The notes beneath the pieces are model-generated. The model was not told the DNA's origin. It made no database searches and worked only from the letters and a program-made list of their open reading frames with translations. 64,000 bases of DNA, taken from the NCBI GenBank assembly GCA_965644295.1, contig CBFFRP010000080.1, positions 62,001 to 126,000 of the forward strand. Reading direction: 5' to 3'. The position numbers were made by a program, and so were the translations under genes. Below are positions 1 through 47,996 of the stretch, piece by piece. Source of the stretch: Paraphysomonas bandaiensis. Lineage: Eukaryota > Protista > Chrysophyceae. The stretch's first letter is position 1; each line of letters begins with the position of its first letter.

Positions 1-514
1 ATACCTTAAAAAACTGAAAATTTTCGTAGGCATGCTGGCTTCCAAACTATTGTGATATATTGTACACTATACTTTAAGGCACTGCTCTGAGTGGCGATGT
101 TGCGATTTTGCGGTGCAAAAAGATTCATTTTTGGAGGTCCACGTTGGAACAAACGCCCGGATTTTAGAAATTAGTTTTTCGGATGTTGCATTTTTGGAAG
201 TCCTCCAATGTGCCAAAAAATGGTGACGAATAGTGCTGAAGATTGAGAAATACTGTGGAATACTGAATAATACAAAACCATTCACTTTCATTCGTTTTTT
301 CGGTGTCTTGAGGAGGAGTGTGTGTTGGTGTGTTGGTGTGTTGATGTGTTGAATCAGAGAATCACAAGAGCGCCTGTGAGTATACAAACATCACTTGGTG
401 CTACTGTATCACTCTTCGACTTCACCGGCCATTAAACTTATACTTCACATGCTGTACTTCACGGCTTAACTTCATCAACAAGTGATAATATATATAACAT
501 AGCCGATAACGATT

Positions 515-2746
515 ATGGTCAGATTCGAAGAAAATTATGCCGCCCACATCGACCTAGGGGTAGACGCCTACATGAACTACGACCTGCTGAAGAAAAAGAT
601 CCATGAATACGAGAGTGCTCCTCAGAGTCGAGATGGAAAGGTCACTCTGAAGGGTGGAACATTCTCCGCTCTATTCGAGGAGGAACTCATTCGGATAGAT
701 GAGATATTTTGTGACAAAATGCGCGATTTGGACTACATGCTTGTCGATACTCAGCGACTCGCCAAGTCAATAAGGAATTCCAATATGTCGAAAGGAAAGA
801 AAAAGGCCCAGGAGGCGGCTCTTAAAAGAAGTGCCACGCTGCTCTATCAAAAGCTCGCGAAGCTTGAAACTTACCGACTTCTGAACAGAACGGCAATCAT
901 AAAGATTTTAAAAAAGTACGACAAAGTATGTGTTCCTCTAAACCATGAGCCTCTTTTCAAGGTTCATATGGATATGATAGACAACTATAGTTTTGGTCAC
1001 GGTAGAACCTTACGTGATATGATATCTAATGTCGAGTCACTCTACGCAGAGTCATTCTGTGGAGGTGTTCTGGAAGAGGCACAGGGGAAGCTACGACTTG
1101 CTAAGGGGTCAGGCCGTCCCCAGTCTCGTACTATAGTTGCGTTCAAGATAGGTGCACTTATAACCCTGATCGTTTGGTTTGCAAATAACCTCGTGCTTGC
1201 ACCACGATATTCGATACCATATCTAACAATGGAGGACCCAGCAGTGTATGTGTATGCCGTAGTAGCTTCTCTAATCACTTTCAGATGGATTTGGGGCTTC
1301 AATGTGTACATGTGGGAGTCCGTACATATTGACTATATTCTTCTTCTCGACCTAGATGCCAACAAGCATGCTCTTACTTACGACCAGATTCTGTCAGAGG
1401 CGGCCACTTACTCCATTGCCTTTTTCGTCAACGTGATGGTATTCCACTCTCTGCGTCTTTATAAGGACAAAACGGACGAGAACTCGATGTCCGGAATTAT
1501 GGCGTTATTCGTACAGTACTCTTACATGATGCCCATTTTGTTGGTTTTAGTTACACTGCTCACTATCCTGAGATCAGCCATGCAACCAACATCATATGGG
1601 GTATTCTCCTCCAAGGTTTTCTTACAGGTAACCTATCTGCTGCTGATTTTATTTCATAATTGGTTTTCTTAGCTATTCATGGTGCCTTTTACGGACGTTC
1701 AATTTCGTCATACCTTTGCGGCAGATATTTTGACCTCCTTCACAAAGGTTATGGCTGCAGTCGTTTACTCCTGCTGCTACTTCATTTCCGGGGCATTCCT
1801 GCAAGGTGGATCAAGAGAATCTGATTTTGGTTCTGAGAGGTTCGCAGTGTGCCAGGAAAGTCCATACATGCACTTAGTAGTGGTGCTGCTATATCTTCTC
1901 CCCTTGTATATGCGTTTCATGCAAAATATGCGCCAACAGTACGATTCCGTGAAGCGCCGCAAGTTGGGTGCGCCTGTCGCACCAGCACCACGCCAGGTTG
2001 TGGTCCGTCCGCGAGCAACGGATGAGGAAACGGCAGATGACGGATCAGAATATGAAGGTGGGCTGAACAGAAGGCGTGTTGGGAGTCCATCAGAGGATCG
2101 GGCTGGACAGGGCACGAACGGAGGCTGGGTAATGGCATCTGTTGCAGATACATCCCAGAGATCGAATGAGGACATGCCTGATATACGTTCCAAGCCTGGA
2201 TCTATGGTAGCTGGATCCCCTGCAGGAGCTGGAATGCCTTACAAACTTAGTCGTAGTGAATCTGTTGATCTACCCAAGCCCAGCATTCTTGAGTGGCTAA
2301 ACACACGCATACGCTTACCGTCTTGGTTGTTGGTATGGCCTTACAGTTTCAATGGATTGAAATACTTCTTGTCTATGCTCGTAGTTGTATTCGGTGCTTA
2401 CCCCCCACAAGACCCTTCGTCGCTCACATATAAGGTTTGCTACCTCACTCTTTGCGCAGTTAGTACCTCGTATTCCACATATTGGGACATATTCAACGAT
2501 TGGCAGCTCTGCCAGATGACCCCACCGAACTATTTGCTCCGAGATATTCTGTACTATGGCGAGACAGAGTACTTTTACTATATTGTAATTGTCCTCAACG
2601 TAATATTTAGATGTCTTTGGACGATATCTTTCACACCGTATGGATCCCACACATTCTTTGTTGTGTTCGAGATTTTGAGGAGAAGTCTGTGGTCTTGTCT
2701 GAGGATGGAACTCGCCTATATCCAAGAGCTAAACAGAAGGAAATAA
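515..2746 (+). CDS. SPX-EXS domain phosphate exporter (XPR1/PHO1/SYG1 family), 2 exons, intron 1628-1672
   Basis: SPX motifs YMNYDLLKKKI and NRTAIIKILKKYDK. EXS motifs VQFRHTFAADILTS, YSTYWDIFNDW, FRCLW and EILRRSLW. A 45-nt GT..AG intron joins ORFs 515-1672 and 1679-2746 in frame. Confidence 0.92.
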
Positions 2747-3450
2747 TACATGGACGGATTTATACTTATTATTATTGCATTGCATACTGCAACTTATACG
2801 ATGAGAATTTAATATATTTAGAGTATAATATTTTGCATCGTTCACCACGAAAGTGAAGTTTATGATGTACCGGTTATTATGCGTGATAATACTTTTACAC
2901 AATAAAGCGACGACGCGTTTAGGTCATGATTTACTTGGAATTGCCACAAAGGAAAGGAAAAGGTTGGGACATTGTATATATGATTTAGACTCAACGGTAA
3001 TAATAAGAAATCTTAACGATGTTGGTTTCTGTTAGAATTGACATTACACTGAAGCTAACCTTGCTGTACGCGTACCATAATTTCAACAGTGAATCGTAAA
3101 TATTAGTATAAATATATTCATGTAACATCGGTTCTTGTTAACATGTTTATCATATATATGTTCACCAGTCATTCCTATATCTAATATAATCATACATCTG
3201 TAACAAAGTTAAAATAACTAAAATTTAAACTACACCTTTTGTTGAACGTTATGTATGCGCGTATTTGATAATAATATGTGATAGTTGATAGTTGTATTCA
3301 AGAAATTAGTGGTTGCAACTATTCGAGAAGAAAAAATTGATCATGGTAAGGGTTAGATTTTTGGTTCAAGTGGTGAAATGGGTAACTGAATGTGATATCA
3401 CTAAATTATATTCTTGGGTTGGGTTAATTGGATAAATACATTATTACTTA

Positions 3451-3652
3451 TAGTAGTGAATGTCTGATTACTAGCGATAGGAGTGTAAGTGTCGGAATGC
3501 AACAAAACAATTTAACTAACTAGTACCACTAACTAGTGATTAATTTTGCGCTACGAAAACTTCTTGTGCGCCACCCCTTTCGCTCTCTGTTCTTAAGTTG
3601 AACAGCCCTGATGCTTGACTTCAGTAGGCAACCCAGTACCCCAGATGCCCCT
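3451..3652 (-). mobile_element. Degenerate partial copy of the non-autonomous SINE-like element that shares the SET-LINE 3' tail
   Basis: The reverse complement ends in cctatcgctagtaatcagacattcacta, versus the LINE end cctattgctaaataatcagacattcacta. gatgcttgacttcagtaggcaacccagtaccccagatgccc matches 36609-36649. Confidence 0.7.
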
Positions 3653-4287
3653 GACTATACAGCAAATAATAATTGCAACTATACAACTGAAAACAAGCGG
3701 CGTCTATTAAGTCAATTAATTGTTACGCACTGCTAAACCTCAGTTTAGGTGAAACAGTATGTATTTAAATAACCAGCAATGTCAAGACTTTCTGCATCAT
3801 AATATATTACAATACCAATATACTGCATTCTCCTTCTGCTTTCATATATATATACGTGTAGTCAATACTATTTATTACAGTTCCATATAGACCTATGTTA
3901 GATAGTAGAATATATAATTTTATATAAGATACAGTACACCAGGACTGCGTAATAATTGATCGTGCATTAATAGACACATACAGGTTGTAGTTTTCTATAA
4001 TTGCAATTATTATTTTCTGTCCGATTAGTTGCAACTATTGGATACTAAGCTACGTATTCTTGTTATTATTATTATTATTCCCGAGGAGACGGTTAAAATT
4101 AAATCTGCGCTGTGTTGACACATTCTGAACTAGACCCTCATTGTCCATTGTCGTAATATGAAAGATGATTATTTACGATTTTGATCTCCTTCTGCAGTTG
4201 TCTGACATTTCGCGTAATGGAAATGTATGAAATAGGTTCAGAAATTATAATGGTATTACCATTAATGATTACCAGTTACCAGGCCTT

Positions 4288-7200
4288 GGCTTCAACCCCT
4301 GGAGCACTACCATCGCACAGGAAGATGCAGTTGAAACACGCCCAAACTGCGTTGACAAGTCGATGCCAGCCAACCCGGAAAGCCAAAAAGGTCGTAAATT
4401 ACGATGAAAGTGACCAACCAACGAACCTTCACAACTCACACCAATCCACGACCACACGAACGATCAGACCAACTCCAGCACTTGATACCACCAGCTGGGA
4501 CAAGGACTGGTCAAGAAAGTTCTACATTGCGTACGCCGATAACACTGCCAAAGGACTATCCCTTTATGCGAAGAACACATTCCCAGCAGACGTCATCATT
4601 GCTGAGTACAAAGGCAAACGCTATCCACTAACAAAGCTGAGTCAGTCTGCAAGGCGTTCTGATTACATAGTTCAAGACAGTACTGGTACCTTCGCAATAG
4701 ATGGCTTTGACCAAGTCCGACAATGTGTAACATGCGAAGCTGGGTATATTAATGACCCCCTAGCCACAAACATGGCTAATGTCAAGTTTGTCACGAAAAA
4801 TAAACGCCTCTATGTCCGTACAATACGTCCCATTGCTAAGGATGAAGAACTTCTCATCAACTACGGGCATCATTACTGGTGTGATCAACGCTGGCCACTT
4901 GAGATATTAATCCAAGCCAGGGCTGCGTACGACAGCGACATAGGCGGTGCCAATAAAGCAGTATGGGACAGACTCCTTGCAGACAAGAGTGGAACTCCTA
5001 CAGAGACCTCCAGCAGCATCCCCAAGGCTCCCTCGGGAGCAGCCATGGGACTCCGACTCTCCACATGGAACACAAATGGCAATCCGGCATCTCACACAGG
5101 CAAAGTCCAAGCTATCATCCGACACTTTAAGCGGCAAAAATTGGACGTGCTCCTATTACAGGATGTCCGTCTAACAGAAACTCAGGCCAACTTCTTCACA
5201 CGTATCATAGAAGATGCAATCCAGGGATCAAGAATATGCCTCTTCCTCAGCAAGCAGCCAAAACTGACTTCAAGAGACCCACTAATGGGGGGTACAGTAG
5301 TCATAATCAGCGAATACTGGAAGCGCCGTCTCGCCTTCACAAAGGCTGACTTTACGGGACTTGGTTTAGTGAGCCGACTAGAGTTCAAAACGTCGGTGGC
5401 GCACACCCTAGTACTAATAAGCGTCTATCTACCCCCGAAGCCATCCACGCCAGGCTCTTGCACATTATGGAGCAAATTGACCAAGCTAGGGAGAGCGTCC
5501 CGTGGTATCTGTACGGCTGACCCCTACAAGCTCCTATGCAACATCCTTACGAAATGGGTCACTAAAGCCAGAGCCAAGGACCATACTGTCATTGTCGCCG
5601 GCGACTTCAATGGCTCCATGGAGACAAATCCGAAAGGCAGAGACATACGACCACTTGCCGACAAACTCCAACTGGCTGCACCACTCCATGAGCTTCTCCT
5701 ACCCAGGAAAACATATCATACCTTCCACAGATTAGACAAAGGAATATCGCGGATCGATCATATTCTACACACGCCGTTACTTCCGAACATGTCTGTTACG
5801 GACACTGGCTGCCTTGACTCCCCCTCACTACTCGCAGCAGCCTTCGATCATCGACCGGTCTGGGTCGGTTTCACTGTACCAGTCAATCTTGACCCTCGAC
5901 CACCTGAGTCGCACCTCCGAATCCCCCCCCGTCTCAATGTAAACCCGAAGGACTCCAAGGAAGTACAGGCATACACCGCAAGACTCCTCCAACTTCATGC
6001 ACAACTACCACATTTAGACAACGGATCGTCTGCCATACTCCCTCCTGAGGTGGCAGCCAACAGACTAGCGGCCATCCATCACATAACCCTCCAGGCTTCG
6101 CTTGAAGCGAAGCGTCCTGCATGTACTTATAGCACACGACTACACGAACGTTGTCAGCGCAAACGCTCAAAGTTCAAGAATGGCTTTTCCCCGGAAATGA
6201 GAGTAATACAAGAAGGAATGATCATGGTTTTGCGGATTATCCAAAAGATGTTCAATTCTGCCGGATACAAACGGCATGGATGGCGCGGCCCCCCGGCAAC
6301 CACCCCCACCCACGAAATCATCACTGCATGGTTCATCCGATGGGACTCCTATCTCAGGAGTTCTCAGGGTCACATCAAAGGCATATCAGACATCAACTTC
6401 TGGTGCAGCCATCGCAACGCGGACCCACGAGTAATCCTGGGTTGGAACGAAAAGCAAGCCACCAAGAAAAACCTTCTCCGAATTGCCTTGCGACTGAGAG
6501 GACTTCTTCATGGAAGAGCCAGGACAGAAATGCGGACTAGACTCACGGCTCGCACCAATCAGATGGAGGCACTGCTACAGCAGAAAAGACTTCAAGCAAT
6601 TCTTCAGAAAATTGGTCTCAAGGTCAAAACACCACTCCGACTTACCACGGTGAAAACAACTGACGGACACATCCTCACAACACCGCAAGACATTCATGAA
6701 GGCATTAATGCGCACTTCCGTGAACATCATGCCAAACCTCCTGGACTTGACCCTGTAGCACAACAGCTCCAGGATGACCCTACATGGTGGAAATCCCTTC
6801 TTGATCCGGGCTCAGCGACATGCCAGGAACCACTCCACCCCCGCTCGAAAATCCCTCTTCCCCTGCAACTGGGGTTACGACGGGCCCTTTGTACCAAGAC
6901 CACTCCGGCCATGGCAGCCACACTCAAATCTACTCTTGCAAAAGACATCACCCAGGATGAATTCTACTGCACACTTCACTCTCTCTCCTTCAACCGCGCG
7001 CCTGGACCCTCAATGGTCTCCTCCAACATGGTCAAATCCTGGCCACCGGTAGTTCAGCGAGAGGCTTACATCCTCACCAGATCTCTCTGGAAACATAAAC
7101 ATGTGCCCATTTGGTGGAGAGACAGGGTAATGTCTCCCATTCTCAAGAAACCAGGAGAATCCTCCCTCACTAATCTCCGACCGATTGGTCTGCTTGAAGT

Positions 7201-10200
7201 CAGTAGGAAAATATTAACAAGGATAATCACTCATAGAATTCTTACCGTATGGGAGGAACAGAAAGTTTTGCATCCGTCCCAGCATGGTTATCGCTGGAGG
7301 AACGGGACGGACACAGCGATACTAAGGGTACTCGCGGCTGCAGAAGAAGCAAGACGAAAAGGCGACCAGCATATATGTACACTCTGGGACTTCAAGAAGG
7401 CCTTCGACTCAATTGCGCCTAACCTCATGCGTCTCGCGTGGGCACGACTGGGCGTTCCGGACGATGTAGTTGACTGGTTTGGCAACTTAGATGCCGGCGG
7501 TCTAACATTTCCCTGGACACCATTCATGGCAAACAACATAGAGCCACGTTCTCTCCTTGACCTCCTGTCCGCAGACGGCCACTTCATTGCACTATTCAGT
7601 CTGGGTTTCGAAGCCGAAAGGGGTATCACCCAAGGGGGCACAGAATCCACATGCGCCTGGGTGGCACTCTACGACATCCTTCTCACGTGGCTGGACATTG
7701 AACTGTCAACAACGAGTCCAACGTTACCAACTATTCAACTCACGACTCCGACTACCGGCGAAATAAAGATCTCCTTCGCGGATGATCTTAACACAATAGC
7801 TAAATCCATACACGCTGCCCAACTCATTGCCCAACAAATATCTGCGTTCTGCGTACTTTCGGGAATGGAACTCTCTATCCCCAAAGTAGTTTGCACAGTG
7901 TTTCCGATCCTACAAGATTCCAACAAGTCCTCCGACCCCATTGGCTACATCATTCTCTACGACTGGTCGTGGCGTCCACACCCAGTCCCTATCCAAACAT
8001 CACTAGAGTCGATACATTACCTCGGAGCAGACCTTCCTCTCACAATCACAGACAAGGCCTCCCATGATTGGTGTCTAAAATACCTGAAAGTCGTGACCAC
8101 ACACCTAGGGATTAAACAGGCCTCAGCCGGCTGTAAAGTCATGGTTATCGAGACCCAAATCATACCGACTTTGCTCTATAGAGCCACCAAAGCTTCATGG
8201 CCGCTACACTGGTACAGAGAAATTGACGCTGCTTGCGCAACCCTCTACAGAAAGGCCCTCAGTCTAGGCCCTGGATACCCCACGGAACTGATCTACCTCT
8301 CACTCAAGCACAACGGATTAGGTATGAAACGTTTCTCAGACTCGGCGCAGGAGCAAAAATGGGGATCTCTACAGCGCGCAATAACCCTCGGGGGAGAAGC
8401 AGGTCAAGCAGCACATTTTCTACTCACTCAGACAACAGAGCCACAGCCCCAATACCACCACTATGTTCTCAGCCTCAGGGAATGGGGAACGGAATTGGGC
8501 CTTACCCTGCAGCAACCTGAGCCCCCCGAACCACAGGATGAACACATGCTGACCAATCTAAAACAAGAACTCGGCCTTAATAGCGTCCAACCAGATACTT
8601 TCAAGGCAATCTTCACAGATGGATCATACACAGCCAGTGCGCTCTCCACGCGTCGCCTCACTCATGTCAATCCGCGAACACGATGGACACACCGAGGAGG
8701 TGCAGCGGTCGTCTACTTACCCCCAGAAAATGCCTGGGAAGATGGTACAACCATAATACTACGACTAGATACACCCTTTCGTGATGTGCCAGGTTTGGAC
8801 TCATACGCATATGAACTCATAGGCACAGCCATGGGGCTTATACTCTCAACACGCATTCCCGAACACATAAGAAGCCACACAGACTGTCAGGCAGTGTGCA
8901 CCCGTACTGAGGAAGCACTCTCCACAAGACGCAGAGCTCTCGGTCACCGTGCAAAAGGGGTACTACTCGAAAGCATCGCGGCCAGTAGAGATTGCAAACG
9001 ACAGGTGACCTGGGTGAGGTCCCATCCCGAACGACGTACCACAGATGAAACGGAGTGGACGTTTGAGGACAAGGGCATCTATATTGCGGACGCAGTCGCG
9101 GGTGAAGACTGGCATGAAGTCGATCGCATCCTTGGAAAAAATAACTACACTGTCTGTACAATTGCGATTGACAGTGCCATTGAACGCTTACTAACCGCTG
9201 GATTATGGCACTGGCGTTTGCACAGTACAAGACGGCCATACTACTCTAGCCCACTCCTTACTGATTTCCAAGATCTCTGCGACCTAAGGACACTTGAGAA
9301 CTACACTTCAACCAGAGATCAACGCTACGGAAACAATCCTGATCGAGCGCCTGGCTACTGGACCAATAGCGGAGTACACCTCCCGCGCAAACTAGCTCAA
9401 GCGGATGGCAGTGCATCCAAAGACAAACTCAGCTCAAATCTACGCCAAAGAATTCTCAACACGGCACTGACATGGGACAAATCTTTCTGCATAGGGAGGA
9501 ACCGGGCCAAAACCAAACAGGGGCTTGACCTGACCAAAGCCGCATGCTCTGACTGCGGGTTTCGACTAGATTCCCTAAAACATATGTGCCTCGACTGCAC
9601 ACATGAATCCATCACCCAAATAAGGGAAACTGCATTTCAATCGCATAAAAATGTGCTACACGAAATACAGAGAACTCAGACCTTACCCAACTGGATCACA
9701 TCTGCACTACGGAGACTCTCCAGCAGAGCCTGGAATCCCTCCATCCCACAGGTCGAGAGATACTGGACTGGAACCATCACAGCAGCCCAACTGGAAACGG
9801 TCTTCGGAGATGACATACACAACCACCTGACGGCTCACAGTCTACGGAACCTAGAAACAGTGGTTATTAATCTCCTGCAACCGCTTTACACTGCAGCGAA
9901 GCTTATGTTACAGGATCGCGGTTGTCGCTATATCACCATGTCCAAAAGGCCGCCCAGGCTACTCCCGAGACCCCGTCCGAAACGCAGTCAGTCAAGACAA
10001 CGTCCGAGAGTCCTTCGACTACTAGGGGTCCAACGAAGACCCCCCACAGCGTATCCGACTCCAGACACACGTGCACACCTCACAGGTCCTACCCGACAGA
10101 GCACTGGACTGCCCAGACCTCCACAACGCCGACGGCTTCGACAACTCTATCTACACCCGCGGCCCCACAGGAGCACAGTAACACATACTACAAACCCAAC

Positions 10201-10576
10201 TCCTCCTCCCAACAATCCCCACCACTCCCAACCCACACATCTGGAACTAGGTGCACTCAGGACCCTAATTCAGAATGCTGAGCCCCCTCCAAAACCAATG
10301 GAGACCCATCCCAAAGGGAGACCCCCAGATCAAAAGCGCCGGTGAGTCCACGGACACACGATAAAGGCGAATTTCATATCACACAAAAAGAACGGAAGTG
10401 GTTGCACCTTGGTGCTTGCGGCGACGCACAAGCAGCTTTCGTAGCGTTAAATAGTAGGATAAAAGAGTTTGTATTGATTAGTTACGGGTAGTGGTCTAAC
10501 TAGTATGACTAGCATTCTTCTAGCCACTAATTGATGCAAGGTCTCAACGCCTATTGCTAAATAATCAGACATTCAC
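4288..10576 (+). mobile_element. Non-LTR retrotransposon (LINE), single ORF SET-APE-RT-RNase H-ZnF, possibly 5'-truncated
   Basis: Exact direct repeat TACCAGGCCTT at 4277-4287 and 10577-10587 (TSD of 9-11 bp; the first TA may belong to the element tail). Composition switches to C/A-rich at ~4280. The 3' UTR recurs elsewhere in the window. Confidence 0.93.
4325..10345 (+). CDS. Retrotransposon polyprotein: SET (~4520-4880), APE endonuclease (~5050-5875), reverse transcriptase (~7090-8040), RNase H (~8605-9110), CCHC finger (~9544-9598)
   Basis: SET: GLSLYAK..IIAEYKG, AGYIND, NVKF, RPIAKDEELLINYGHHYW. APE: TWNTNG, SVYLPP, GDFN, SRIDHIL, DHRPV. RT: LRPIGLLE, DFKKAFDS, GITQG, FADD, YLG. RNase H: IFTDGS, YELIG, TDCQ, WVRSH, ADAVA. 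ZnF: CSDC..DSLKHMCLDC. The first in-element ATG is 4325; the track start at 4181 is a TTG in the host flank. Confidence 0.93.
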   Translation: MQLKHAQTALTSRCQPTRKAKKVVNYDESDQPTNLHNSHQSTTTRTIRPTPALDTTSWDKDWSRKFYIAYADNTAKGLSLYAKNTFPADVIIAEYKGKRYPLTKLSQSARRSDYIVQDSTGTFAIDGFDQVRQCVTCEAGYINDPLATNMANVKFVTKNKRLYVRTIRPIAKDEELLINYGHHYWCDQRWPLEILIQARAAYDSDIGGANKAVWDRLLADKSGTPTETSSSIPKAPSGAAMGLRLSTWNTNGNPASHTGKVQAIIRHFKRQKLDVLLLQDVRLTETQANFFTRIIEDAIQGSRICLFLSKQPKLTSRDPLMGGTVVIISEYWKRRLAFTKADFTGLGLVSRLEFKTSVAHTLVLISVYLPPKPSTPGSCTLWSKLTKLGRASRGICTADPYKLLCNILTKWVTKARAKDHTVIVAGDFNGSMETNPKGRDIRPLADKLQLAAPLHELLLPRKTYHTFHRLDKGISRIDHILHTPLLPNMSVTDTGCLDSPSLLAAAFDHRPVWVGFTVPVNLDPRPPESHLRIPPRLNVNPKDSKEVQAYTARLLQLHAQLPHLDNGSSAILPPEVAANRLAAIHHITLQASLEAKRPACTYSTRLHERCQRKRSKFKNGFSPEMRVIQEGMIMVLRIIQKMFNSAGYKRHGWRGPPATTPTHEIITAWFIRWDSYLRSSQGHIKGISDINFWCSHRNADPRVILGWNEKQATKKNLLRIALRLRGLLHGRARTEMRTRLTARTNQMEALLQQKRLQAILQKIGLKVKTPLRLTTVKTTDGHILTTPQDIHEGINAHFREHHAKPPGLDPVAQQLQDDPTWWKSLLDPGSATCQEPLHPRSKIPLPLQLGLRRALCTKTTPAMAATLKSTLAKDITQDEFYCTLHSLSFNRAPGPSMVSSNMVKSWPPVVQREAYILTRSLWKHKHVPIWWRDRVMSPILKKPGESSLTNLRPIGLLEVSRKILTRIITHRILTVWEEQKVLHPSQHGYRWRNGTDTAILRVLAAAEEARRKGDQHICTLWDFKKAFDSIAPNLMRLAWARLGVPDDVVDWFGNLDAGGLTFPWTPFMANNIEPRSLLDLLSADGHFIALFSLGFEAERGITQGGTESTCAWVALYDILLTWLDIELSTTSPTLPTIQLTTPTTGEIKISFADDLNTIAKSIHAAQLIAQQISAFCVLSGMELSIPKVVCTVFPILQDSNKSSDPIGYIILYDWSWRPHPVPIQTSLESIHYLGADLPLTITDKASHDWCLKYLKVVTTHLGIKQASAGCKVMVIETQIIPTLLYRATKASWPLHWYREIDAACATLYRKALSLGPGYPTELIYLSLKHNGLGMKRFSDSAQEQKWGSLQRAITLGGEAGQAAHFLLTQTTEPQPQYHHYVLSLREWGTELGLTLQQPEPPEPQDEHMLTNLKQELGLNSVQPDTFKAIFTDGSYTASALSTRRLTHVNPRTRWTHRGGAAVVYLPPENAWEDGTTIILRLDTPFRDVPGLDSYAYELIGTAMGLILSTRIPEHIRSHTDCQAVCTRTEEALSTRRRALGHRAKGVLLESIAASRDCKRQVTWVRSHPERRTTDETEWTFEDKGIYIADAVAGEDWHEVDRILGKNNYTVCTIAIDSAIERLLTAGLWHWRLHSTRRPYYSSPLLTDFQDLCDLRTLENYTSTRDQRYGNNPDRAPGYWTNSGVHLPRKLAQADGSASKDKLSSNLRQRILNTALTWDKSFCIGRNRAKTKQGLDLTKAACSDCGFRLDSLKHMCLDCTHESITQIRETAFQSHKNVLHEIQRTQTLPNWITSALRRLSSRAWNPSIPQVERYWTGTITAAQLETVFGDDIHNHLTAHSLRNLETVVINLLQPLYTAAKLMLQDRGCRYITMSKRPPRLLPRPRPKRSQSRQRPRVLRLLGVQRRPPTAYPTPDTRAHLTGPTRQSTGLPRPPQRRRLRQLYLHPRPHRSTVTHTTNPTPPPNNPHHSQPTHLELGALRTLIQNAEPPPKPMETHPKGRPPDQKRR

Positions 10577-11332
10577 TACCAGGCCTTCTTTCCGGTAGAC
10601 GTCGTCAATGTAGAATACATCTTTCTTACCAGAAGTCGTGAATAGCATCATCTATAGCCCATCTCTAAGTTTCAGAATGAGCACATGTTGATGGTCCTAT
10701 ATAGTGAGTTTGAACTAGCTACGTGTAGTGTACTCCTTGTCATTATATGCAGTAACTAATATATACGCACACAAAAACTGATGATATTTTGAAAATATTC
10801 CAATATATTGCAATAACTGACTATTAGTTAAAGAAAGTTTTCGTCAACTATAATTGCAATTATTATTTTCAGTCCGATTAGCTAATTAAAGGAGTTGTAA
10901 TGCGTACATGAATAGCACAAAACTCCATTTCTTGATGAGTCGTACATCTGTTCAGTTCATGGTACTTGGCATACAGCACTAATTCAGAGGCAACATGGGA
11001 CAGTAAGTACCAGTATTCTATTTTTCTCGTTCAACTTTGGCCTTACCATCGTCATATTTGCAGCCCCTATAGTTCTCTTTAGAAATCGTGACTTTCACGT
11101 TGGTATTCACTTAGATATCGTAGAGGTCGTATAGTAGCCGATCTCTGCCAAGAGCAGATTCCTGACAAATTCGCAAGAAGGTTTTAATGTGTACTATCGT
11201 AAATATAAACGGGCTACTCTGGCATTGCTATCTTTCCAATTATATAACTAGTAATGAAAATACGCACATTGGGTAAACCTATATGCGACCCAGCTATAGA
11301 TAAAGGTCGTAACATCAACGCGTAGCTGATCA

Positions 11333-25580: not shown

Positions 25581-28500
25581 TTAACCTCTTCGGGGTCGCT
25601 TCTTCTGCTGCTCCTCAACTCTGGTTGACACACTTCTCTTAACCCCGGTAATAGTTTTCTCATGACGACTGAAAAGTTTCGTTGACAATGCCTTCGTGAA
25701 AATATCAGCCGCCATATCATCCGTCGACACATGAATCAACTTTGCCGTAGGAAATTTTCCATTTACATGCTCTCTCACCCAGTGATACTTGATGTCTATA
25801 TGCTTCGACCTCTTATGATACACAGGATTCTCGGAGAGATCTTTCGCACTCTTGCTATCCATAAAGAATGGAGTCGGCTTCGCAACTAAGAGCCCGAGCT
25901 CCTTGAACACCCCCCGAAGCCACACCAGTTCTTGCATAGCCGCATACTCCGCCATATATTCAGATTCCATGCTCGAAGTTGCAACTGTGGTCTGTAGTTT
26001 AGACTGCCAGGCCAATGCGCCTGCACATAAGAACACAATGTATCCTGTTGTCGATCGCCGAGTCAGTCTATCACCAGCCCAATCTGAATCACTGAACACA
26101 TGTAAGTCGAACTCACTCCCACTGAATCTGATGCCCTCATCAATTGTTCCACGCAAATATTTCAATAAGTGAATCGCCAGTTTGCACGATGCATATGTCG
26201 GACAACTACTAAATCGAGACAATAACCCCACTGCATAAGCCAGATCAGGTCTAGTATGCATTGCTAGATACAACACTGCTCCAATAATTTGCCGATACGG
26301 AAATGAGTCAACCCACTGCTTCTGCTCCTCCGTAAGTTCACGTTCCTCTGCCAACAGATCCTGAACATTAGTAGGTAGTGGGGCCTCCTTATTCTTACTA
26401 CTCTTTCCCATAACTGAGCTGAATTTCTTGATAATATTCTTAGCATACTCAGATTGATCTAACATATACCAATTTTCTCCTCTGGTTATCCTGATGTTCA
26501 GAAATCGCTTACACACTCCCAGATCATGCATCTCGAATGTTTCACAGAACCTACGCTTTACGCTTTCCAAGTAAGTCAGATCAGCGGATGCAATTATGAT
26601 ATCATCAACATATATCAATAATAAATGCAGTTTTCCGTTACTCCATCGCATATACAAACACGTATCCAAAATACACGGAGTAAAATGCAATGATTTAATA
26701 AACTTGTCAATATGTTTATTCCACTGTCGCGGTGAAGATCGCAGTCCATACAATGCCTTGATTAGTTGAAAACACCATCCAGCTAGTAATTCCTCATCTG
26801 GTGGAGGTGCCATATACACGTCATCCTCCAGATCTGCATAGCAAAATGCGGATGATACATCTAATTGATGCACATGCATCTGTAACATAAACGCAATCGC
26901 TAACACTAGTCTAATGGTTATACCCTTAACCTCCTCCTTCTTCTCTTGGAGATTTCCTAATGCCACTAGCCGAGCCTTGTACTTTACTATATTCCCTAGT
27001 ATGTCTCGCTTCACCGTATGCACATATTTCGCTCTAACTAATTTCACTCCGCTTGGAATTTTCACGATCTTCAAGACACGTCTTTTCAGCAATGATGTCT
27101 TCTCCACCATTCGAGCTTTTCTCCATTGTTGATACTGTGGAGATCTCTCTGCCTCGGCATATGAATTTGGTATCTTGATATCTTCTGTCTCTGCATGGTT
27201 AAGATCAATATTATGCGCATCCGGTACTTCAACCATATTAATCTCTCCTAAAACTGACGCGTTTGCCAGTCTCCGCTGCAGCCGTTTGCGTCGGACCCGA
27301 CCATCACCATCTAGTTCAATCGGTCGACGAGGTATATAAGAACCCGTACCTTGCTCATCCTGAGCACGCACATCGTGCGTTGTGGGAGGAGCCCCGCTCA
27401 CAACCCCAGACTCATAGTCTTCAGAGGTCTGCAACCTCACAGCTGTCTCCTGACAGGTTGGGTCAGGACTCTCCTGTAACCCTCCAGGTCTTCCCTGGTC
27501 CAGCACCCTGGCTGGCATAGTACTCAGGGCGTCCCCCTTTCCTATATATCCGGTATTCCCGGGAGTTTCTGCAGTCATTCGCACTACGTCCTCGACGTGA
27601 ATCGGCACCCGGTGCTCGATATGCTTCCGACCTGCAGTTACCAGAGATCGATAGGCTACTATTACCCCCTTTCGTTCTACTACTCTCGTGGTCTTGTAGA
27701 GAAGACCATCCTCATCATCAATATGATATGTACCTTCTAAGCCCGCATAGTCAGACACAATTTTCGGTCTCTCGGCCTCCTTCACTCGAAGAGCATCTAT
27801 CTCAGCGAAATAGCTCTCCGAGCGTGACGGTATGGACTCATCAGTTAATACATGTACCGACGTGACGACCCTATCAGTCGCAGGTAGATATACATCATAT
27901 CCTACCTTTTCATCTGAATATCCTATCAGATATCCGATAAGGGCCTTGTCGTCCCAGTCTTTCCGTCGATCCGCCTTTGTAGTGAGGACATACGCACGAC
28001 ACCCCCATACTCTGAGATATTTCAGGTTGGGAGCCTCACCAGTCAAAAATTCAAGAGGGGACATATACCCCTTCGCTGTCTTTGTAGGCAATCGAATTAA
28101 TATGTACCTGGCTGCCATGTAGGCATCTAGCCAAAACTGTGAAGGCAATCCTGACTGAATCAGCATCGCTAATGTCATCTCACCACAGGTCCTGAATTTC
28201 CGCTCCTCAATCGCGTTCATCTCAGGAGAGTCCGTAGAGCTCCACGTATGTTGATAGCAACCCTGTGACCTAAGATATTGTCGCAGCTCATCACATATTA
28301 GCTCCCCTGCTCCATCTGCATGGTAATGATGCATTTCTAATTTGTACCTTTTCACATCTCCTTCAAAAATCTTCTTGAAAACCTGCAGTACCGATGACCC
28401 AGTCCTATGAACAAGCCCTTCCGACCAGAACATCCGACTGGCATGGTGTGTTAGTTTGAGCACATATATTTCCCCTCCTCGAGCTGGACAATTTAAGTAT

Positions 28501-30269
28501 ACTGCTATATCGGCCGAGAAATTTGGACGAACGGAGTCCTCATCCTTTGTCCGAAAACTTACTCTGGTGATCTTCGCCCTGGCGCATACATCACATAGAC
28601 ACTGTTCTTTGGAAACACGTTTCGAGAGATGTTTTCGTTTCAGTCCAGTCCCAATAATTAGCATTCTTTTGTGGGCTTCTACCAACGCATGCTTGTTAAA
28701 ATGACCCGCTCTCCTATGTAACAGCTCCAGTTCATCCTCACCCGTACGGTCACTGAGATTTACTTCTGAATCACTGGATGTCGATACGTCTGGAAGCTCC
28801 AATAACTGCTGTGTTGGCACAGCAGTCATTCCATTCTTCATAGGTCCCTCCAACACCAGCTCATCCGTATTTCTGTCATATATCTGTATACCATACCATA
28901 CAGTAAATCGATATCCCATATCGTTCAACTTCCGTCCAGAACAAAGACACCGATTTATCTGACTTGATACCTCAATGTTCTTCCATGCTCCACGGGAACC
29001 TACACTCGTGACGCATATCTCTGACCCTTTTTTCGAACCATTAATAACCTTTGATGTGTGCATATGACTATCAAGTATATTCACATCATTTATCAAAAAC
29101 ATTGATGACGAACAACAGGTATCAATGTATGTATAGTGAATATCCTCATGCACACTACTGCATATATTCGTCTCATACACATTACATGACAAGTGATACT
29201 CTTCCTGTTGCTCGATCATATTTGCTTCGTCTTCGTCAGACAAATCCGCTGGCTCTCCACGCCTGATGTTTTCAACTGTAAGTAGTCTTTTGTCTGGTTT
29301 CCTTCCATCTTGAAACCTCACAGCCTTGCTCTTGCTTTGCGAGTACTTCTTTTTCGATGCTGGACAATCGATGGCAAGATGTTCCTTTGACTTACAATTT
29401 CTGCACCCAGTATATTCGGCACTTCCAGGTCGCTGCCCTGTAATCTCTGTATCCTTCTTCATCGGCTTCTTCTTACCGTTGTTCTTCTTACGATGATCCC
29501 TCTCTCTGCGATATCGTTTCTTACTGTCTATCAGGTTCAGCTCCTCCACTCTTTTACGCTTCTTCTCCAACGCTTCCTTCCCAGCCATAGTATCATCATA
29601 GCCTTCTATCTTACGTGATACAGTTACATAATTAACATCATCATCCATCAAGTATAATCCAACTCTCAGTTGAGCATACTCTTCATTGAGCAAGCCTTCT
29701 CGTAGTCGACTTGTTTTTGATACCTCCGAGATATCCTGCTGCTGCTCCTGTAGTTCCTTCAGCAGTAGTTCGAACCGTAGTACGTAGTCCTTCGCCGTCT
29801 CCTCCGGACGCATACGGAAAGAACCATATTGAGTTAAGAGGTCACTGATCCTATTTTGCTTCCCTCCAGCAAAACACTTCTTCAACTCATCAATCATTAC
29901 ATGTGTTTTGAACCTGTTTACACCACTCCCTTCTGCCTTGAACGCTTTGTGGGTAAGATGGAATTTACGCAGCGCTTTCGGGGAATGCTGCACCGCATCC
30001 CTGCAGTAAGAATAAGCTATGGCGTTCGCCTTCCAATACCTCTTCACAGCCTGTCTGTACGCCTTCTCCTCCATCAACGTAAGTGGCTGCTCCCCGAAGT
30101 CGCTCTCCTTAGGTGGCAGTTCCACCGCTACCTCGCTTTGTTCCTTCCTCATAAGGAATGTCTCGAAGTCCTCAATCCATTGTTCAACGTTAGTCTCGTT
30201 GAACTGAGGAACTACTCCTCTATCCTCCTTCTCTCCTCCTCGCTCGCTACCATGTTGGGAAATGCTCAT
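25581..30269 (-). CDS. Copia gag-pol polyprotein (Gag, CCHC, protease, integrase, RT, RNase H)
   Basis: CRNCKSKEHLAIDC knuckle, YIDTCCS protease, LHRRAGH..CDVC, DGAGE..EERKFR, KARLVA, QLDVSSAF, LYGL, IYVDD, SDSDWAG, KHIDIKYHWVRE. The INT-before-RT order is that of Copia. Confidence 0.96.
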   Translation of the reverse strand: MSISQHGSERGGEKEDRGVVPQFNETNVEQWIEDFETFLMRKEQSEVAVELPPKESDFGEQPLTLMEEKAYRQAVKRYWKANAIAYSYCRDAVQHSPKALRKFHLTHKAFKAEGSGVNRFKTHVMIDELKKCFAGGKQNRISDLLTQYGSFRMRPEETAKDYVLRFELLLKELQEQQQDISEVSKTSRLREGLLNEEYAQLRVGLYLMDDDVNYVTVSRKIEGYDDTMAGKEALEKKRKRVEELNLIDSKKRYRRERDHRKKNNGKKKPMKKDTEITGQRPGSAEYTGCRNCKSKEHLAIDCPASKKKYSQSKSKAVRFQDGRKPDKRLLTVENIRRGEPADLSDEDEANMIEQQEEYHLSCNVYETNICSSVHEDIHYTYIDTCCSSSMFLINDVNILDSHMHTSKVINGSKKGSEICVTSVGSRGAWKNIEVSSQINRCLCSGRKLNDMGYRFTVWYGIQIYDRNTDELVLEGPMKNGMTAVPTQQLLELPDVSTSSDSEVNLSDRTGEDELELLHRRAGHFNKHALVEAHKRMLIIGTGLKRKHLSKRVSKEQCLCDVCARAKITRVSFRTKDEDSVRPNFSADIAVYLNCPARGGEIYVLKLTHHASRMFWSEGLVHRTGSSVLQVFKKIFEGDVKRYKLEMHHYHADGAGELICDELRQYLRSQGCYQHTWSSTDSPEMNAIEERKFRTCGEMTLAMLIQSGLPSQFWLDAYMAARYILIRLPTKTAKGYMSPLEFLTGEAPNLKYLRVWGCRAYVLTTKADRRKDWDDKALIGYLIGYSDEKVGYDVYLPATDRVVTSVHVLTDESIPSRSESYFAEIDALRVKEAERPKIVSDYAGLEGTYHIDDEDGLLYKTTRVVERKGVIVAYRSLVTAGRKHIEHRVPIHVEDVVRMTAETPGNTGYIGKGDALSTMPARVLDQGRPGGLQESPDPTCQETAVRLQTSEDYESGVVSGAPPTTHDVRAQDEQGTGSYIPRRPIELDGDGRVRRKRLQRRLANASVLGEINMVEVPDAHNIDLNHAETEDIKIPNSYAEAERSPQYQQWRKARMVEKTSLLKRRVLKIVKIPSGVKLVRAKYVHTVKRDILGNIVKYKARLVALGNLQEKKEEVKGITIRLVLAIAFMLQMHVHQLDVSSAFCYADLEDDVYMAPPPDEELLAGWCFQLIKALYGLRSSPRQWNKHIDKFIKSLHFTPCILDTCLYMRWSNGKLHLLLIYVDDIIIASADLTYLESVKRRFCETFEMHDLGVCKRFLNIRITRGENWYMLDQSEYAKNIIKKFSSVMGKSSKNKEAPLPTNVQDLLAEERELTEEQKQWVDSFPYRQIIGAVLYLAMHTRPDLAYAVGLLSRFSSCPTYASCKLAIHLLKYLRGTIDEGIRFSGSEFDLHVFSDSDWAGDRLTRRSTTGYIVFLCAGALAWQSKLQTTVATSSMESEYMAEYAAMQELVWLRGVFKELGLLVAKPTPFFMDSKSAKDLSENPVYHKRSKHIDIKYHWVREHVNGKFPTAKLIHVSTDDMAADIFTKALSTKLFSRHEKTITGVKRSVSTRVEEQQKKRPRRG

Positions 30270-30545
30270 TTTACTTAGATCAAAGAGAGATTAAGTTGTT
30301 AGACTAGATAGATTTATTAATATCGTTTACACGAATTGTGTTAAACAACACAAGCTCGTTTTGTGCCATGCATAAATCACTACTTCTGTAGACCTTTCGC
30401 TACTAAACATATCTTGAAAGAGCAAACTATTTCAGTTTTCTCAATATCATAACAGCATCTACACATCACCATACTTCACTGTATTCTCGTACATTGTCTT
30501 CAAGTACCACATTGAATATACTAGGATACAGTCCATATTCTAATA
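30253..30545 (-). repeat. Copia 5' LTR (293 bp)
   Basis: Direct repeat of 25115-25407, followed on the minus strand by the PBS. Confidence 0.97.
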
Positions 30546-31289: not shown

Positions 31290-31525
31290 CTGTTGAGAAA
31301 CACGCGCCAGTGAGTCCTAAGACACACAAACAACATTAAGAAGGAAGTGGTTGCACCTTGGTGCTTGCGGCGACGCACAAGCAGCTTCTGTAGCGCTAAA
31401 TAGTAGAATAATAGAATTTGTGCTGATTAGTTATGGGTAGAGGTCTAACTAGTAGATCTAGCATTCAACTAGCCACTATATCGGAACGAGATTTTAACGC
31501 CTATTGCTAAATAAAAAGACTTTCT
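31290..31525 (+). mobile_element. Severely 5'-truncated copy of the SET-LINE family (ORF end plus 3' UTR)
   Basis: gcgccagtgagtcc matches the LINE stop region gcgccggtgagtcc. ggaagtggttgcaccttggtgcttgcggcgacgcacaagcagctt is identical to 10395-10439, and similarity continues to acgcctattgctaaataa. Confidence 0.85.
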
Positions 31526-34681: not shown

Positions 34682-36157
34682 ATGAAGATCAACCCCAATG
34701 CAGGTGAGTTGCTGTTGTTGTGCGTGTAGTGCTCTGAGGTGTCTGTCGTGTGTATGTGCAGTCAAATCGGAGATTCGAGCAGCGCTGATTAATAATAAAG
34801 TGAATGCGTGCCCGATGGTACTGAGGCGATATCGTGTGGAGCTATTGCTTATGTGCTGTCTGTAGGCTATGAGGGTTGCATGGCACTCTTCCGGGACGTA
34901 TGACAAGAACTCCAATACAGGCGGCTCTGATGGCGGGACTATGCGATTTGCAGCCGAGGCTAACGATGAGGCGAATGCTGGCCTGTCCATCATTCGGGAC
35001 ATGCTTCACCCAGTTCAGGCTAACAACCCTGGCATTTCTGCTGCTGATCTATGGACAGCAGCAGGTGCAGCTGCTGTATCGTTTTCTGGTGGACCTGAGA
35101 TCCCGCACAAATATGGTCGCACTGACACAGATGACCCTTCTAAGTGTCCAAGAAATGGGCTTCTCCCCGATGCCTCACAGGGCGCCGACCATTTGCGAGA
35201 CGTATTTTACCGGATGGGGTTCGACGATCGGGAAATTGTAGCTTTGTCTGGGGGGCACACACTTGGCCGTGGACATTACACTAGATCAGGGTATGATGGC
35301 CCTTGGACTCATACTCCTCTAACATTCAACAACGAATATTTCAAAAACTTGATGAACCTTGAGTGGCGACCGAGGAAATGGAAGGGTAAGTTTCAGTACG
35401 AGGATGTACAATCTGGTCGACTGATGATGCTGCCAACTGATATGGCTCTACGAAACGACCCGGTCTTCAGCAAGTACGCCCGCCGCTATGCTGATGATGA
35501 ACAGGAGTTCTTTCGAGATTTCAGCGCAGCGTACGCGAAACTTCTTTCTCTTGGGTGTCCTTCTGCTTGTCAGCCCACCAGTGCCCCAACGAAAACGCCG
35601 TCCAGTGGAGGTGATGGCAACACTTTGTCCCGGGAGGAGGCGAGCGCAGAGTTCAGAGAGTACGCAATGCATGGATCTCTGGAACGCGTGCAAGAGCTGA
35701 GCGAGAGGTCGGATGTTCACGAAGCGGAGGGGTATTCTGGCCGCACGGCACTGCATAAAGCTGCTTTTTGGGGCCACACCGATGTCGTAGAGTATTTGGT
35801 GGGGCTTGGATTAAATGTAAACGCCGTCGATTATAACGGAGACACCGCGTTACACGGTGCGCATTCTGTTGTCGATTTGTGTTTATACTGACTAAAGTTC
35901 TTTTCTTAGATGCGGCGCGATTTGCTCATGAGGGTGTAGTACGCACACTTGTTGCAACCCCCACTTGTGACCTCTTCTTGAAAAATAAAGATGGGCTCAC
36001 CCCGCTTGAAGTGGCACTAGAGTACTCCACTACAAGTACTGCCAATAAGCACGATATTGTGATTAAGGTGCTGGAAGATGCGGAACGACATCATGGTGGA
36101 AGTGGGAGCCCTATGACAGGACATACAGGCATGTCAACTCTACGTAGTCGTCTGTAG
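34682..36157 (+). CDS. Class I heme peroxidase (cytochrome c peroxidase/APX-like) fused to C-terminal ankyrin repeats, 4 exons
   Basis: RVAWHSSGTYD, SAADLW, LPDA..GADHLRDVFYRMGF, ALSGGHTLG, GPWT..FNNEYF, MLPTDMAL. The same ORF continues into GRTALHKAAFWGH, GDTALHDAARFAH and GLTPLEVA. Confidence 0.9.
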
Positions 36158-36375: not shown

Positions 36376-36845
36376 TAGTGAGTATTTAATTAGCAATAGA
36401 TGAGTAAGAGTCAGTGTTTAACTAGTGCTTAGCTCTGGTATCCTACTATTTAACGCTACGTAAGCTGCTTGTGCGTCACCGCAGGCACCAATGTGCAACC
36501 ACTTTCGCTCTATCACTCTCAAAGCAAACACAGCGAGCAAGTAGAATGTTGATATACCTGACATTTGCTGACTTCCGGATTTTGAGTCCTTAAAGTGAAC
36601 TCATTCCGGATGCTTGACTTCAGCAGGCAACCCAATACCCCGGATGCCCTTGGGGTGGACTCATTCCCCGATGGCTGCTGTCTATTCGTCCAGGACCAAA
36701 GATGTTAGTGTTCCTTGTACCACACATGCGTTTGGCTAAGAGTGGGCAGAACAATATCTGCTGACTATGTATATGCGGAGAAATATATCCGGCACTTATT
36801 CCCCAGAACATGACGAAAAGGTACGAGCCCGGCTTTGTTGAGGGA
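36376..36845 (-). mobile_element. Full-length ~470-bp non-autonomous SINE-like element with the SET-LINE 3' tail
   Basis: Tail gaaagtggttgcacattggtgcctgcggtgacgcacaagcagcttacgtagcgttaaatagtaggat is near-identical to the LINE 3' UTR and ends ..tcacta. Flanked by tttagtaactg (36365-36375) and tttattaactg (36846-36856). Confidence 0.85.
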
Positions 36846-47533: not shown

Positions 47534-47996
47534 TAGTCCTGAATGTCTTATTACTAGCAATAGGCGGTTAACTAACTAGTGCTTAACTCTGATATCCTAC
47601 TATTAAACGCTACCAAAGCTGTTTGTGAATCTCACCGCATGCACCAAACTGCAACCACTTTCGCACTCAAAGCACACGCAGTAAGCAAGCAGAATGACAT
47701 CTACTGACTTCAGGATATTTGAGTTCTGATATATGGTTGAATTCAGTTGAGGCAGCCCACAATACTCTTGATGCACTTTTGAGGGTGGGCCCATTCCCTG
47801 ATGCCTGTTTATTCGTCAGGGCCCAAAGACGTCTACACAAATGACACTTGTATTTTCGTGACCCTTAGGCTATTAGTGAGCAGAAAATTATCTGCTGTCT
47901 ATGTTTGCGGCTTGTGTTAGTTCCCGGAAAATCCTCTCCGATACTTTCTTTCAGAACACAACGAAAAGGTGCGAGTACGACTTTGTGTGAGGGCAC
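47534..47996 (-). mobile_element. Full-length ~465-bp SINE-like element with the SET-LINE 3' tail
   Basis: Same head, body and tail as 36376-36845. Ends cgcctattgctagtaataagacattcaggacta. Flanked by taccgctca (47525-47533) and tatcgctca (47997-48005). Confidence 0.85.

Follow-up and report, generated by a model that had tools for sequence, protein, structure and literature searches.

Long interspersed nuclear elements (LINEs) move by means of a polyprotein that binds its own RNA: the APE endonuclease nicks the target, the reverse transcriptase (RT) copies the RNA by target-primed reverse transcription and RNase H removes it, and early termination leaves 5'-truncated copies flanked by a duplication. 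A SET domain has been described in the LINE Dualen-1_GCr of Geminigera cryophila, a Repbase-submitted element with a protein of 5287 residues containing SET, C48, APE, RT, RNase H, CCHC and restriction-like endonuclease (RLE) domains (Lescot et al. 2016, PMC5029228). The excerpts of that paper call SET unique to the cryptophyte Dualen, and according to the excerpts of PMC12747079 Dualen LINEs are expanded in most cryptophyte genomes. Here we analyse a stretch of 64,000 nucleotides from the chrysophyte Paraphysomonas bandaiensis (contig CBFFRP010000080.1, positions 62,001 to 126,000), referred to below as the window, in which positions 4288 to 10576 are a recent 5'-truncated insertion of an APE-type LINE, the approximately 3100-residue polyprotein of which carries an anciently acquired, conserved SET domain.

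As far as it is described in those excerpts, Dualen-1_GCr resembles the window family in its very long single open reading frame (ORF), in the position of SET upstream of APE, RT, RNase H and CCHC and in its marine protist host. It differs in having a cysteine protease, C48, after SET, where the window family has no Pfam C48, and in its 5287 residues with an RLE at the end, compared with about 3100 residues, a SET located about 55 residues before APE and no RLE motif; this comparison is one of descriptions, not of SET or RT sequences. Of the Dualen/RandI traits, APE upstream of RT and RNase H plus CCHC after RT were found, but the PD-(D/E)xK motif of the defining restriction-like endonuclease was absent from 7 of 7 families, and the region after the zinc knuckle is modelled as helical. 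Since no RLE motif is present, the lineage is regarded as a variant rather than filed under Dualen. With the L1-like APE LINEs that carry RNase H the family shares the APE-RT-CCHC order, a duplication of variable length and 5' truncation; it differs from them in its 1100-residue N-terminal extension and in-frame SET, the copy has no poly(A), and the match to L1 is distant.

Epigenetic writers are also carried by other transposons. The HarbingerS and MuDR DNA transposons of Phytophthora possess SET genes (cited in Kojima 2025, PMC12730594), which likewise represent a transposon-borne SET lysine methyltransferase with a proposed role in countering silencing; these are DNA transposons, and the available text of PMC12730594 mentions no reverse transcriptase fusion. 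SymbioLINE-Dnmt, according to the excerpts of de Mendoza et al. (2018, PMC5890265), is similarly a LINE with an epigenetic writer under purifying selection, but its writer is a DNA cytosine methyltransferase in a separate ORF1 and not a protein methyltransferase fused to APE-RT. The main text of a 2026 preprint on Dam-carrying retrotransposons contains no whole-word 'SET'. In the literature searched, part of it in excerpts, only PMC5029228 describes a SET domain in a LINE, none describes a SET LINE without RLE (Repbase may list more), and no functional study of a LINE-borne SET was found. The initial annotation of the window knew of no described SET-carrying LINE clade and had itself named an earlier listing as what would remove the novelty; in view of Dualen-1_GCr the novelty holds only in part. 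SET-bearing LINEs are in principle already known, and what is new is a widespread, RLE-less LINE lineage with a mobile SET type.

Outline of the element

The borders of the element and its reading frame were assigned as follows (window coordinates).

4288..10576, + strand: 5'-truncated copy of an APE-type LINE; its start is residue 1097 of the full-length ORF of 3111-3114 residues
4277..4287, + strand: left target-site duplication TACCAGGCCTT, an exact 11-bp repeat
10577..10587, + strand: right target-site duplication TACCAGGCCTT; its first bases, TAC, may also be the element's own 3' end
4289..10345, + strand: open reading frame of 2018 codons and stop; its ATG at 4325 corresponds to a Met inside the full-length protein
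10346..10576, + strand: 3' untranslated region without poly(A) tail; the last ~190 nt are common to an abundant short repeat family

In the translation of the window the LINE frame is open on the + strand from 4169 to the stop codon at 10343-10345, and from the first ATG within the element, at 4325, it encodes 2006 residues before the stop, in agreement with the uninterrupted ORF of about 2007 codons in the initial annotation. Between 4169 and 4288 the open frame continues past the duplication and into the host sequence, where it has upstream ATGs; this is probably fortuitous. The flanking duplication was confirmed as an exact repeat, with exactly two + strand copies of TACCAGGCCTT and none on the - strand in the 64-kb window; near 3450, in a related short copy, TAC likewise follows the identical terminal bases. 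No poly(A) or simple-repeat tail was found at the 3' end, where the terminal ...CAGACATTCAC directly abuts the duplication. Since SymbioLINE-Dnmt has no tails either, the missing tail does not exclude a LINE, and APE upstream of a LINE-type RT in one frame, the target-site duplication, the 5' truncation and dispersed copies with more 3' than 5' ends are all those of a LINE.

The copy, which had been taken for an intact element, is truncated. Two proteins of its 90% cluster, P0016 (3114 residues) and P0020 (3111 residues), have 1096 extra N-terminal residues; the window copy differs from the former at 22 of 2018 positions and from the latter at 12 of 2015, an identity above 98%. In sequencing run X5 one contig (mean depth 94) departs from the window sequence at 4288 and extends 1654 nt further, and one contig of run X9 departs at the same position and extends 522 nt further. 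The start at residue 1097 and these contigs mean that the window copy lacks its 5' part and that the ATG at 4325 is internal. Approximately 3.3 kb of 5' coding sequence is absent, and the copy is probably not expressed by itself. The ORF does not begin with SET either, as had been stated: the domain is internal, residues 1185-1289 of the full-length protein.

The family is young: its full-length members differ at about 1% of residues, and one run or more contains it at high depth. In X5, depth is 94-113 over the SET bins and 3-5 in the flanks, and towards the 3' end it climbs from 94 to about 190-310; read depth is not a copy number, but these values fit a young multi-copy family. The environmental sequencing runs containing the element are marine; the runs used have a share of at least 0.2, which leaves out X17-X24. 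Repeat copies of its last ~190 nt (10388-10576) occur in the window at 31338-31524 (+), 36433-36511 (-), 47585-47663 (-) and ~3450-3600 (-); in X5 this short repeat family reaches a depth of 5190, compared with 100-300 in the LINE body, with many loose ends at 10388-10396, and it is likely a non-autonomous partner of the LINE resembling a short interspersed nuclear element.

Distribution and age of the SET-APE fusion

The first protein search gave 6 of 5531 candidates, two of which, about 35% identical, contained SET, APE and RT. With cluster look-ups and further searches the number of clusters or loci in which SET precedes APE rose to 19, with identities as low as about 35% (P0016, P0212/P0045, P0002, P0004/P0028, P0030, P0044, P0024, P0047, P0048, P0049, P0052, P0055, P0059, P0112, P0125, P0149, L001, L003 and L004); seven of the 19 have SET, APE and RT in a single frame, P0024 with a SET truncated at the start. 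A word-index search of long proteins with the SET region alone gave none of 148 candidates, which reflects a limit of sensitivity, the fused relatives having been found otherwise. An MMETSP transcript is the source of P0210, a SET-containing protein of a sister family.

Among five deep families the identities are 29-48% in SET, 31-63% in APE and 25-50% in the linker, and in close pairs the spacers adjoining SET are only 21-39% identical, far below SET itself. L004 is a SET-APE-RT copy with frameshifts and about 48% identity to the window. Against it the proportion of synonymous differences (pS) is saturated at 0.71-0.86, and that of nonsynonymous differences (pN) amounts to 0.24 in RT, 0.33-0.35 in APE, 0.35 in SET and 0.44 in the linker; L004 is split over several frames, and the values were computed frame by frame. 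The SET and APE trees have five supported clades in common (P0016+P0045, P0024+P0048, P0028+P0030+P0044, P0112+L003 and P0068+P0079). The SET, APE and RT trees cover this lineage only and leave the deeper forks unresolved; P0034, without SET, is not in the SET tree, and P0045 was too short for the RT tree.

The SET-APE join is bridged by contigs covering 4733-5472 and 4744-6210 (runs X5 and X9). The outer junctions are less well covered: in run X1 the contigs reach just 14 and 24 nt into the element, under the 31-nt bar, and since X1 may be the window's own source they add little. The statement that SET has the base composition of the element was not confirmed, its GC content being 45% compared with 50-53% in APE, RT and RNase H and 34-37% in the flanks. 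At third codon positions (GC3) SET has 0.43 versus 0.51 (Fisher p 0.09; 4 of 77 windows are equally low), and base composition decides nothing on the origin of SET, either way. Judged by the fused clusters and loci, the common clades and the substitution pattern, SET belongs to the element, as had been proposed, and the fusion is old and under purifying selection.

The P0034 cluster and L006 are relatives without SET; L005 has only 103 residues ahead of APE and is uninformative on the absence of SET. L004, L005 and L006 were found in records titled bacterial metagenome-assembled genomes, and they are likely mis-binned eukaryotic repeats, not bacterial LINEs.

The SET domain: fold, motifs and catalytic state

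The following features were located in the SET region.

4514..4888, + strand: SET core (Pfam match 4553-4867)
4751-4753, + strand: Asn
4754-4756, + strand: Asp at the His position
4862-4864, + strand: putative catalytic Tyr
4889..4990, + strand: post-SET helices, characteristic of SETs linked to LINEs: a YW...W motif and two helices

The Pfam model PF00856 is covered over its whole length (1-105 of 105) with E 8.5e-9 and 36 bits, the cut-off being 22.4, and the Atlas match to SET clusters has a score of 0.96. In a profile search of solved structures 70 passed the threshold of E 0.01, KMT2C ranking first (E 2.6e-9); the best ones are the H3K4 enzymes KMT2C and Set1 (E 2.6e-9 to 2e-8), at identities too low for substrate assignment, and PR domains are matched weakly. 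The AlphaFold model (mean pLDDT 77) had 364 Foldseek matches at E 0.001, the best of them SET7/9 (E 2.5e-8, TM-score 0.64). The complete SET domain of the initial annotation was thus borne out, with a predicted SET7/9-like fold and with the five quoted motifs in the translation; one of these, AGYIND, is present as quoted, but it had not been remarked that its ND stands in place of the NH signature.

SET7/9 is likewise a compact SET without Cys-rich pre- and post-SET regions and with a helical post-SET, and vSET (PBCV-1 A612L, a viral H3K27 methyltransferase) is also compact and has the same EExxxxYGxxYW end. Both differ from the LINE SET, which is less than 25% identical to them in the fold searches, has ND and not NH and is tethered in a polyprotein; the substrate of SET7/9 or vSET is not transferable to it. 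Sequence profiles point to H3K4 enzymes and the fold points to SET7/9; the core itself is not acidic.

All 28 LINE-linked or C48-linked SETs possess the putative catalytic Tyr, which aligns with that of KMT2C; 24 have the Asn binding S-adenosylmethionine (SAM), also aligned with KMT2C (three of the others have Asp, one His), and 25 the Tyr of the I-SET. At the His position of the NH signature 21 of the 28 have Asp, 7 have Glu and none has His. Asp is found there in 122 of 153 other related SET rows as well, and because it is usual in these too it is regarded as the mark of a subfamily, not as decay. In SET proteins SAM is held through five backbone atoms and one Asn side chain, as stated in the excerpts of PMC3178901, so that the change of His to Asp need not abolish SAM binding. 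Since Tyr and Asn are kept, ND marks a subfamily, SAM is held by the backbone and Asn, and vSET shares the variant C-terminal motif, the domain is probably an active SAM-dependent lysine methyltransferase.

Association of the SET type with proteases

In a HMMER search of 1.84 billion representatives 382 proteins were obtained at E 1e-10. Among the 150 listed of these 382, the match extends into the post-SET helices in 74; a LINE domain occurs in 13 of the 74 and a C48 protease in a further 4. No LINE domain was found in the 45 rows without the helices or in the 31 that end at SET. These rows are mostly fragments and the profile was built from LINE SETs, hence the figures describe an association and are no census.

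Two long relatives carry SET at the other end of the polyprotein, together with OTU and Peptidase_C48 domains recognised by Pfam: the order is RNase H-APE-RT-knuckle-SET-OTU-C48 in P0068 (3923 residues) and RNase H-APE-RT-knuckle-OTU-SET-C48 in P0079 (3532 residues). The N-terminal Pfam RNase H ahead of APE is an unusual order, and the P0068 cluster has at least six near-identical full-length members. The APE and RT of both proteins group with the SET-less P0034, while their SET nests, at modest support, among the N-terminal SETs, a hint that SET may have been transferred between lineages.

Scanning viral contigs for the pattern of the SET alignment produced 18 matches, none of them a relative, and viral SETs match by fold only, at 12-22% identity. 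A viral origin of SET is neither shown nor excluded by these pattern and fold matches.

Other domains of the polyprotein

The domains reported to follow SET were all recovered, APE and RT by Pfam, RNase H and the zinc finger by alignment.

5048..5875, + strand: APE endonuclease (Pfam Exo_endo_phos E 1.3e-9; GDxN, DH and DH(R) motifs kept)
6968..8035, + strand: reverse transcriptase with FADD (Pfam RVT_1 E 7e-15, match 7145-8026)
8588..9130, + strand: RNase H with complete D-E-D-H-D (alignment of families)
9545..9598, + strand: CCHC zinc knuckle CX2CX8HX4C (alignment of seven families)
9599..9940, + strand: conserved all-helical C-terminal domain (helical model after the knuckle, no recognisable RLE)

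The first metal-binding residue of APE endonucleases is usually Glu; Asp occupies this position in all seven families aligned. The best solved-structure match of the RT is human L1 ORF2p (E 2e-9, compared with 9e-4 for R2). The D-E-D-H-D residues of RNase H are invariant in the seven families; Pfam gives no match to it in the window protein, and its RNase_H model matches the relative P0024 below the cut-off.

After the CCHC no PD-(D/E)xK or RH(N/D) motif is conserved in the seven families. Foldseek gave no match for this region at E 0.001, which is not evidence of a new fold. Among the VIA matches, two R2 structures hold rank 33 (Z 4.4, rmsd 4.9, 127 aligned) and rank 41 (Z 4.3, rmsd 5.1, 120 aligned), where helical proteins unrelated to them score just as well; an invariant Arg stands nine residues past the knuckle. 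Because of this Arg and the two background-level R2 rows, a degenerate RLE remnant after the knuckle is possible.

The N-terminal 1100 residues contain two repeats with G-x-C and H-(Y/F) motifs, which are kept in the sister family P0212 (67% and 65% identity; 47% between the two repeats). Judged by the OTU motif, these repeats resemble papain-type proteases; an N-terminal cysteine protease, Josephin-like or C48, is a further trait of the Dualen/RandI clade. The repeats have no Pfam match, Atlas offers a weak lead only, to a herpesvirus tegument deubiquitinase domain (score 0.77), and whole-protein BLASTP did not link them to the Pfam OTU/C48 domains of P0068, P0079 and P0106.

A short motif ending in D-x-x-G-D-G-P recurs in the N-terminal extensions ahead of the repeat domains in eight proteins (P0016 at 34 and 460, P0002 at 14, P0004 at 537, P0030 at 248, P0149 at 333, P0212 at 79 and 545, L003 ORF2 at 653 and L006 at 229). 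Every instance is upstream of SET and none lies between SET and APE. As a 2A sequence the motif was rejected, not fitting the consensus GD(V/I)ExNPGP as given in the excerpts of PMC3708506, and the literature searched has no paper on a similar motif; it could be a cleavage or skip site. L003 has a separate upstream ORF (375-3473, 1032 residues, no Pfam match) overlapping its SET-APE frame (3389-9715), and some members of the lineage may have two ORFs.

Neighbourhood of the element

The neighbouring genes, SPX-EXS, UTP15 and a copia element, provide a eukaryotic context (Pfam). The last of these is an intact-looking ORF of a copia-type long terminal repeat retrotransposon at 25581-30290 on the - strand (1562 residues; gag knuckle, integrase, RVT_2). 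A peroxidase fused to ankyrin repeats (Pfam) lies at 34866-35891 on the + strand.

Discussion

In the mechanism that we propose the polyprotein would associate with the RNA that encodes it, and integration would proceed by target-primed reverse transcription. Because no separating signal was found between SET and APE, SET would remain attached in cis to the retrotransposition particle, enter the nucleus and arrive at the target site as part of one chain with APE-RT. There it would methylate host histones at the copies of the element, which would thereby stay expressible, and in some lineages de-SUMO or deubiquitinating protease domains would assist it, making up a small chromatin-editing kit. 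Methylation of host histones at element copies with an anti-silencing outcome may occur, although we place it slightly short of an even chance.

Several findings weigh against this view. The usual SET signatures are altered: NH(S/C)xxPN is replaced by NDPLATNMAN in the window, with the pattern NDxxxxxxxN, and ELx(F/Y)DY by ELLINY. In three close family pairs SET is less conserved than APE (68/75, 81/91 and 47/63% identity, respectively), and the relatives in the P0034 cluster and L006 retrotranspose without SET, which makes it dispensable in the wider lineage. The C-terminal SETs of P0068 and P0079 nest among N-terminal SETs at only 84/88 support, and in the single run recorded as RNA the SET bins have a depth of only 1.5-3.6. 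The window SET core is net basic (19 K+R versus 13 D+E; mixed in relatives), an acidic groove being expected for histone tails, and SET7/9, the best fold match, has been solved mostly with non-histone peptides.

The last two points lead to another explanation, namely that SET is active on non-histone proteins, such as the polyprotein itself or host restriction or RNA-silencing factors, and stabilises or regulates the particle. Besides the lack of acidic excess, it is favoured by the helical post-SET region and the many non-histone peptide complexes of SET7/9, and by the long, Lys/Arg-rich spacers adjoining SET in the polyprotein. On the other hand, the best profile matches are H3K4 enzymes, even if their identities are too low to name a substrate, and these SETs travel with Ulp1 and OTU proteases. 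In hosts such proteases act on chromatin and silencing marks. A non-histone substrate is conceivable but rather unlikely.

SET may also be catalytically feeble or inactive and serve for binding only, recognising histone tails or methyl-lysine and so tethering or directing the particle, much as PHD and chromodomains do in other retroelements. The His of NH is absent from all 28 linked SETs, the Asn is replaced by Asp or His in four, PR domains match weakly, and the position of SET is free, N- or C-terminal. However, the Tyr in 28 and the Asn in 24 are kept across about 30% identity, and Asp at the His position in most of the related rows points to a subfamily and not to decay inside LINEs. We regard such a binding-only role as unlikely. 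Still less can be said for SET being cut from the polyprotein, by its own proteases or by a signal resembling ribosome skipping, and acting in trans genome-wide instead of at the insertion site. Relatives encode C48 and OTU proteases and the D-x-x-G-D-G-P-like motif precedes the N-terminal repeats in eight proteins, but the motif is unlike the 2A consensus and always upstream of SET, never between SET and APE, and this explanation is highly improbable. Finally, SET could have been a host gene captured on a single occasion, a passenger evolving neutrally or the product of a faulty assembly join. The slightly lower GC and GC3 of SET, nearer to host genes, and the short reach of the outer-junction contigs would lend themselves to this, but it is ruled out by a fusion conserved in families about 35% identical (19 clusters or loci), together with congruent trees, a pN equal to that of APE at saturated pS and bridging contigs in two runs.

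Retrotransposons with chromatin readers and with DNA methyltransferases are already known, and one cryptophyte Dualen with SET has been published. To return to histone methylation in cis, its boldest form is that the window family belongs to a widespread, undescribed lineage of giant protist LINEs, possibly RLE-less descendants of Dualen, the own SET subfamily of which (ND and post-SET helices) moves between termini and lineages with Ulp1 and OTU domains, and that this would be the first retrotransposon to write a histone mark in cis on a new insertion during target-primed reverse transcription, the copy being born active. We put this forward tentatively, as possible rather than probable. If RT trees place the lineage beside Dualen, it may bear on how RLE gave way to APE in LINE evolution. 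Being young and having SET-less relatives that can serve as natural controls, the family lends itself well to the question whether the chromatin state at an insertion can be set by the retroelement itself.

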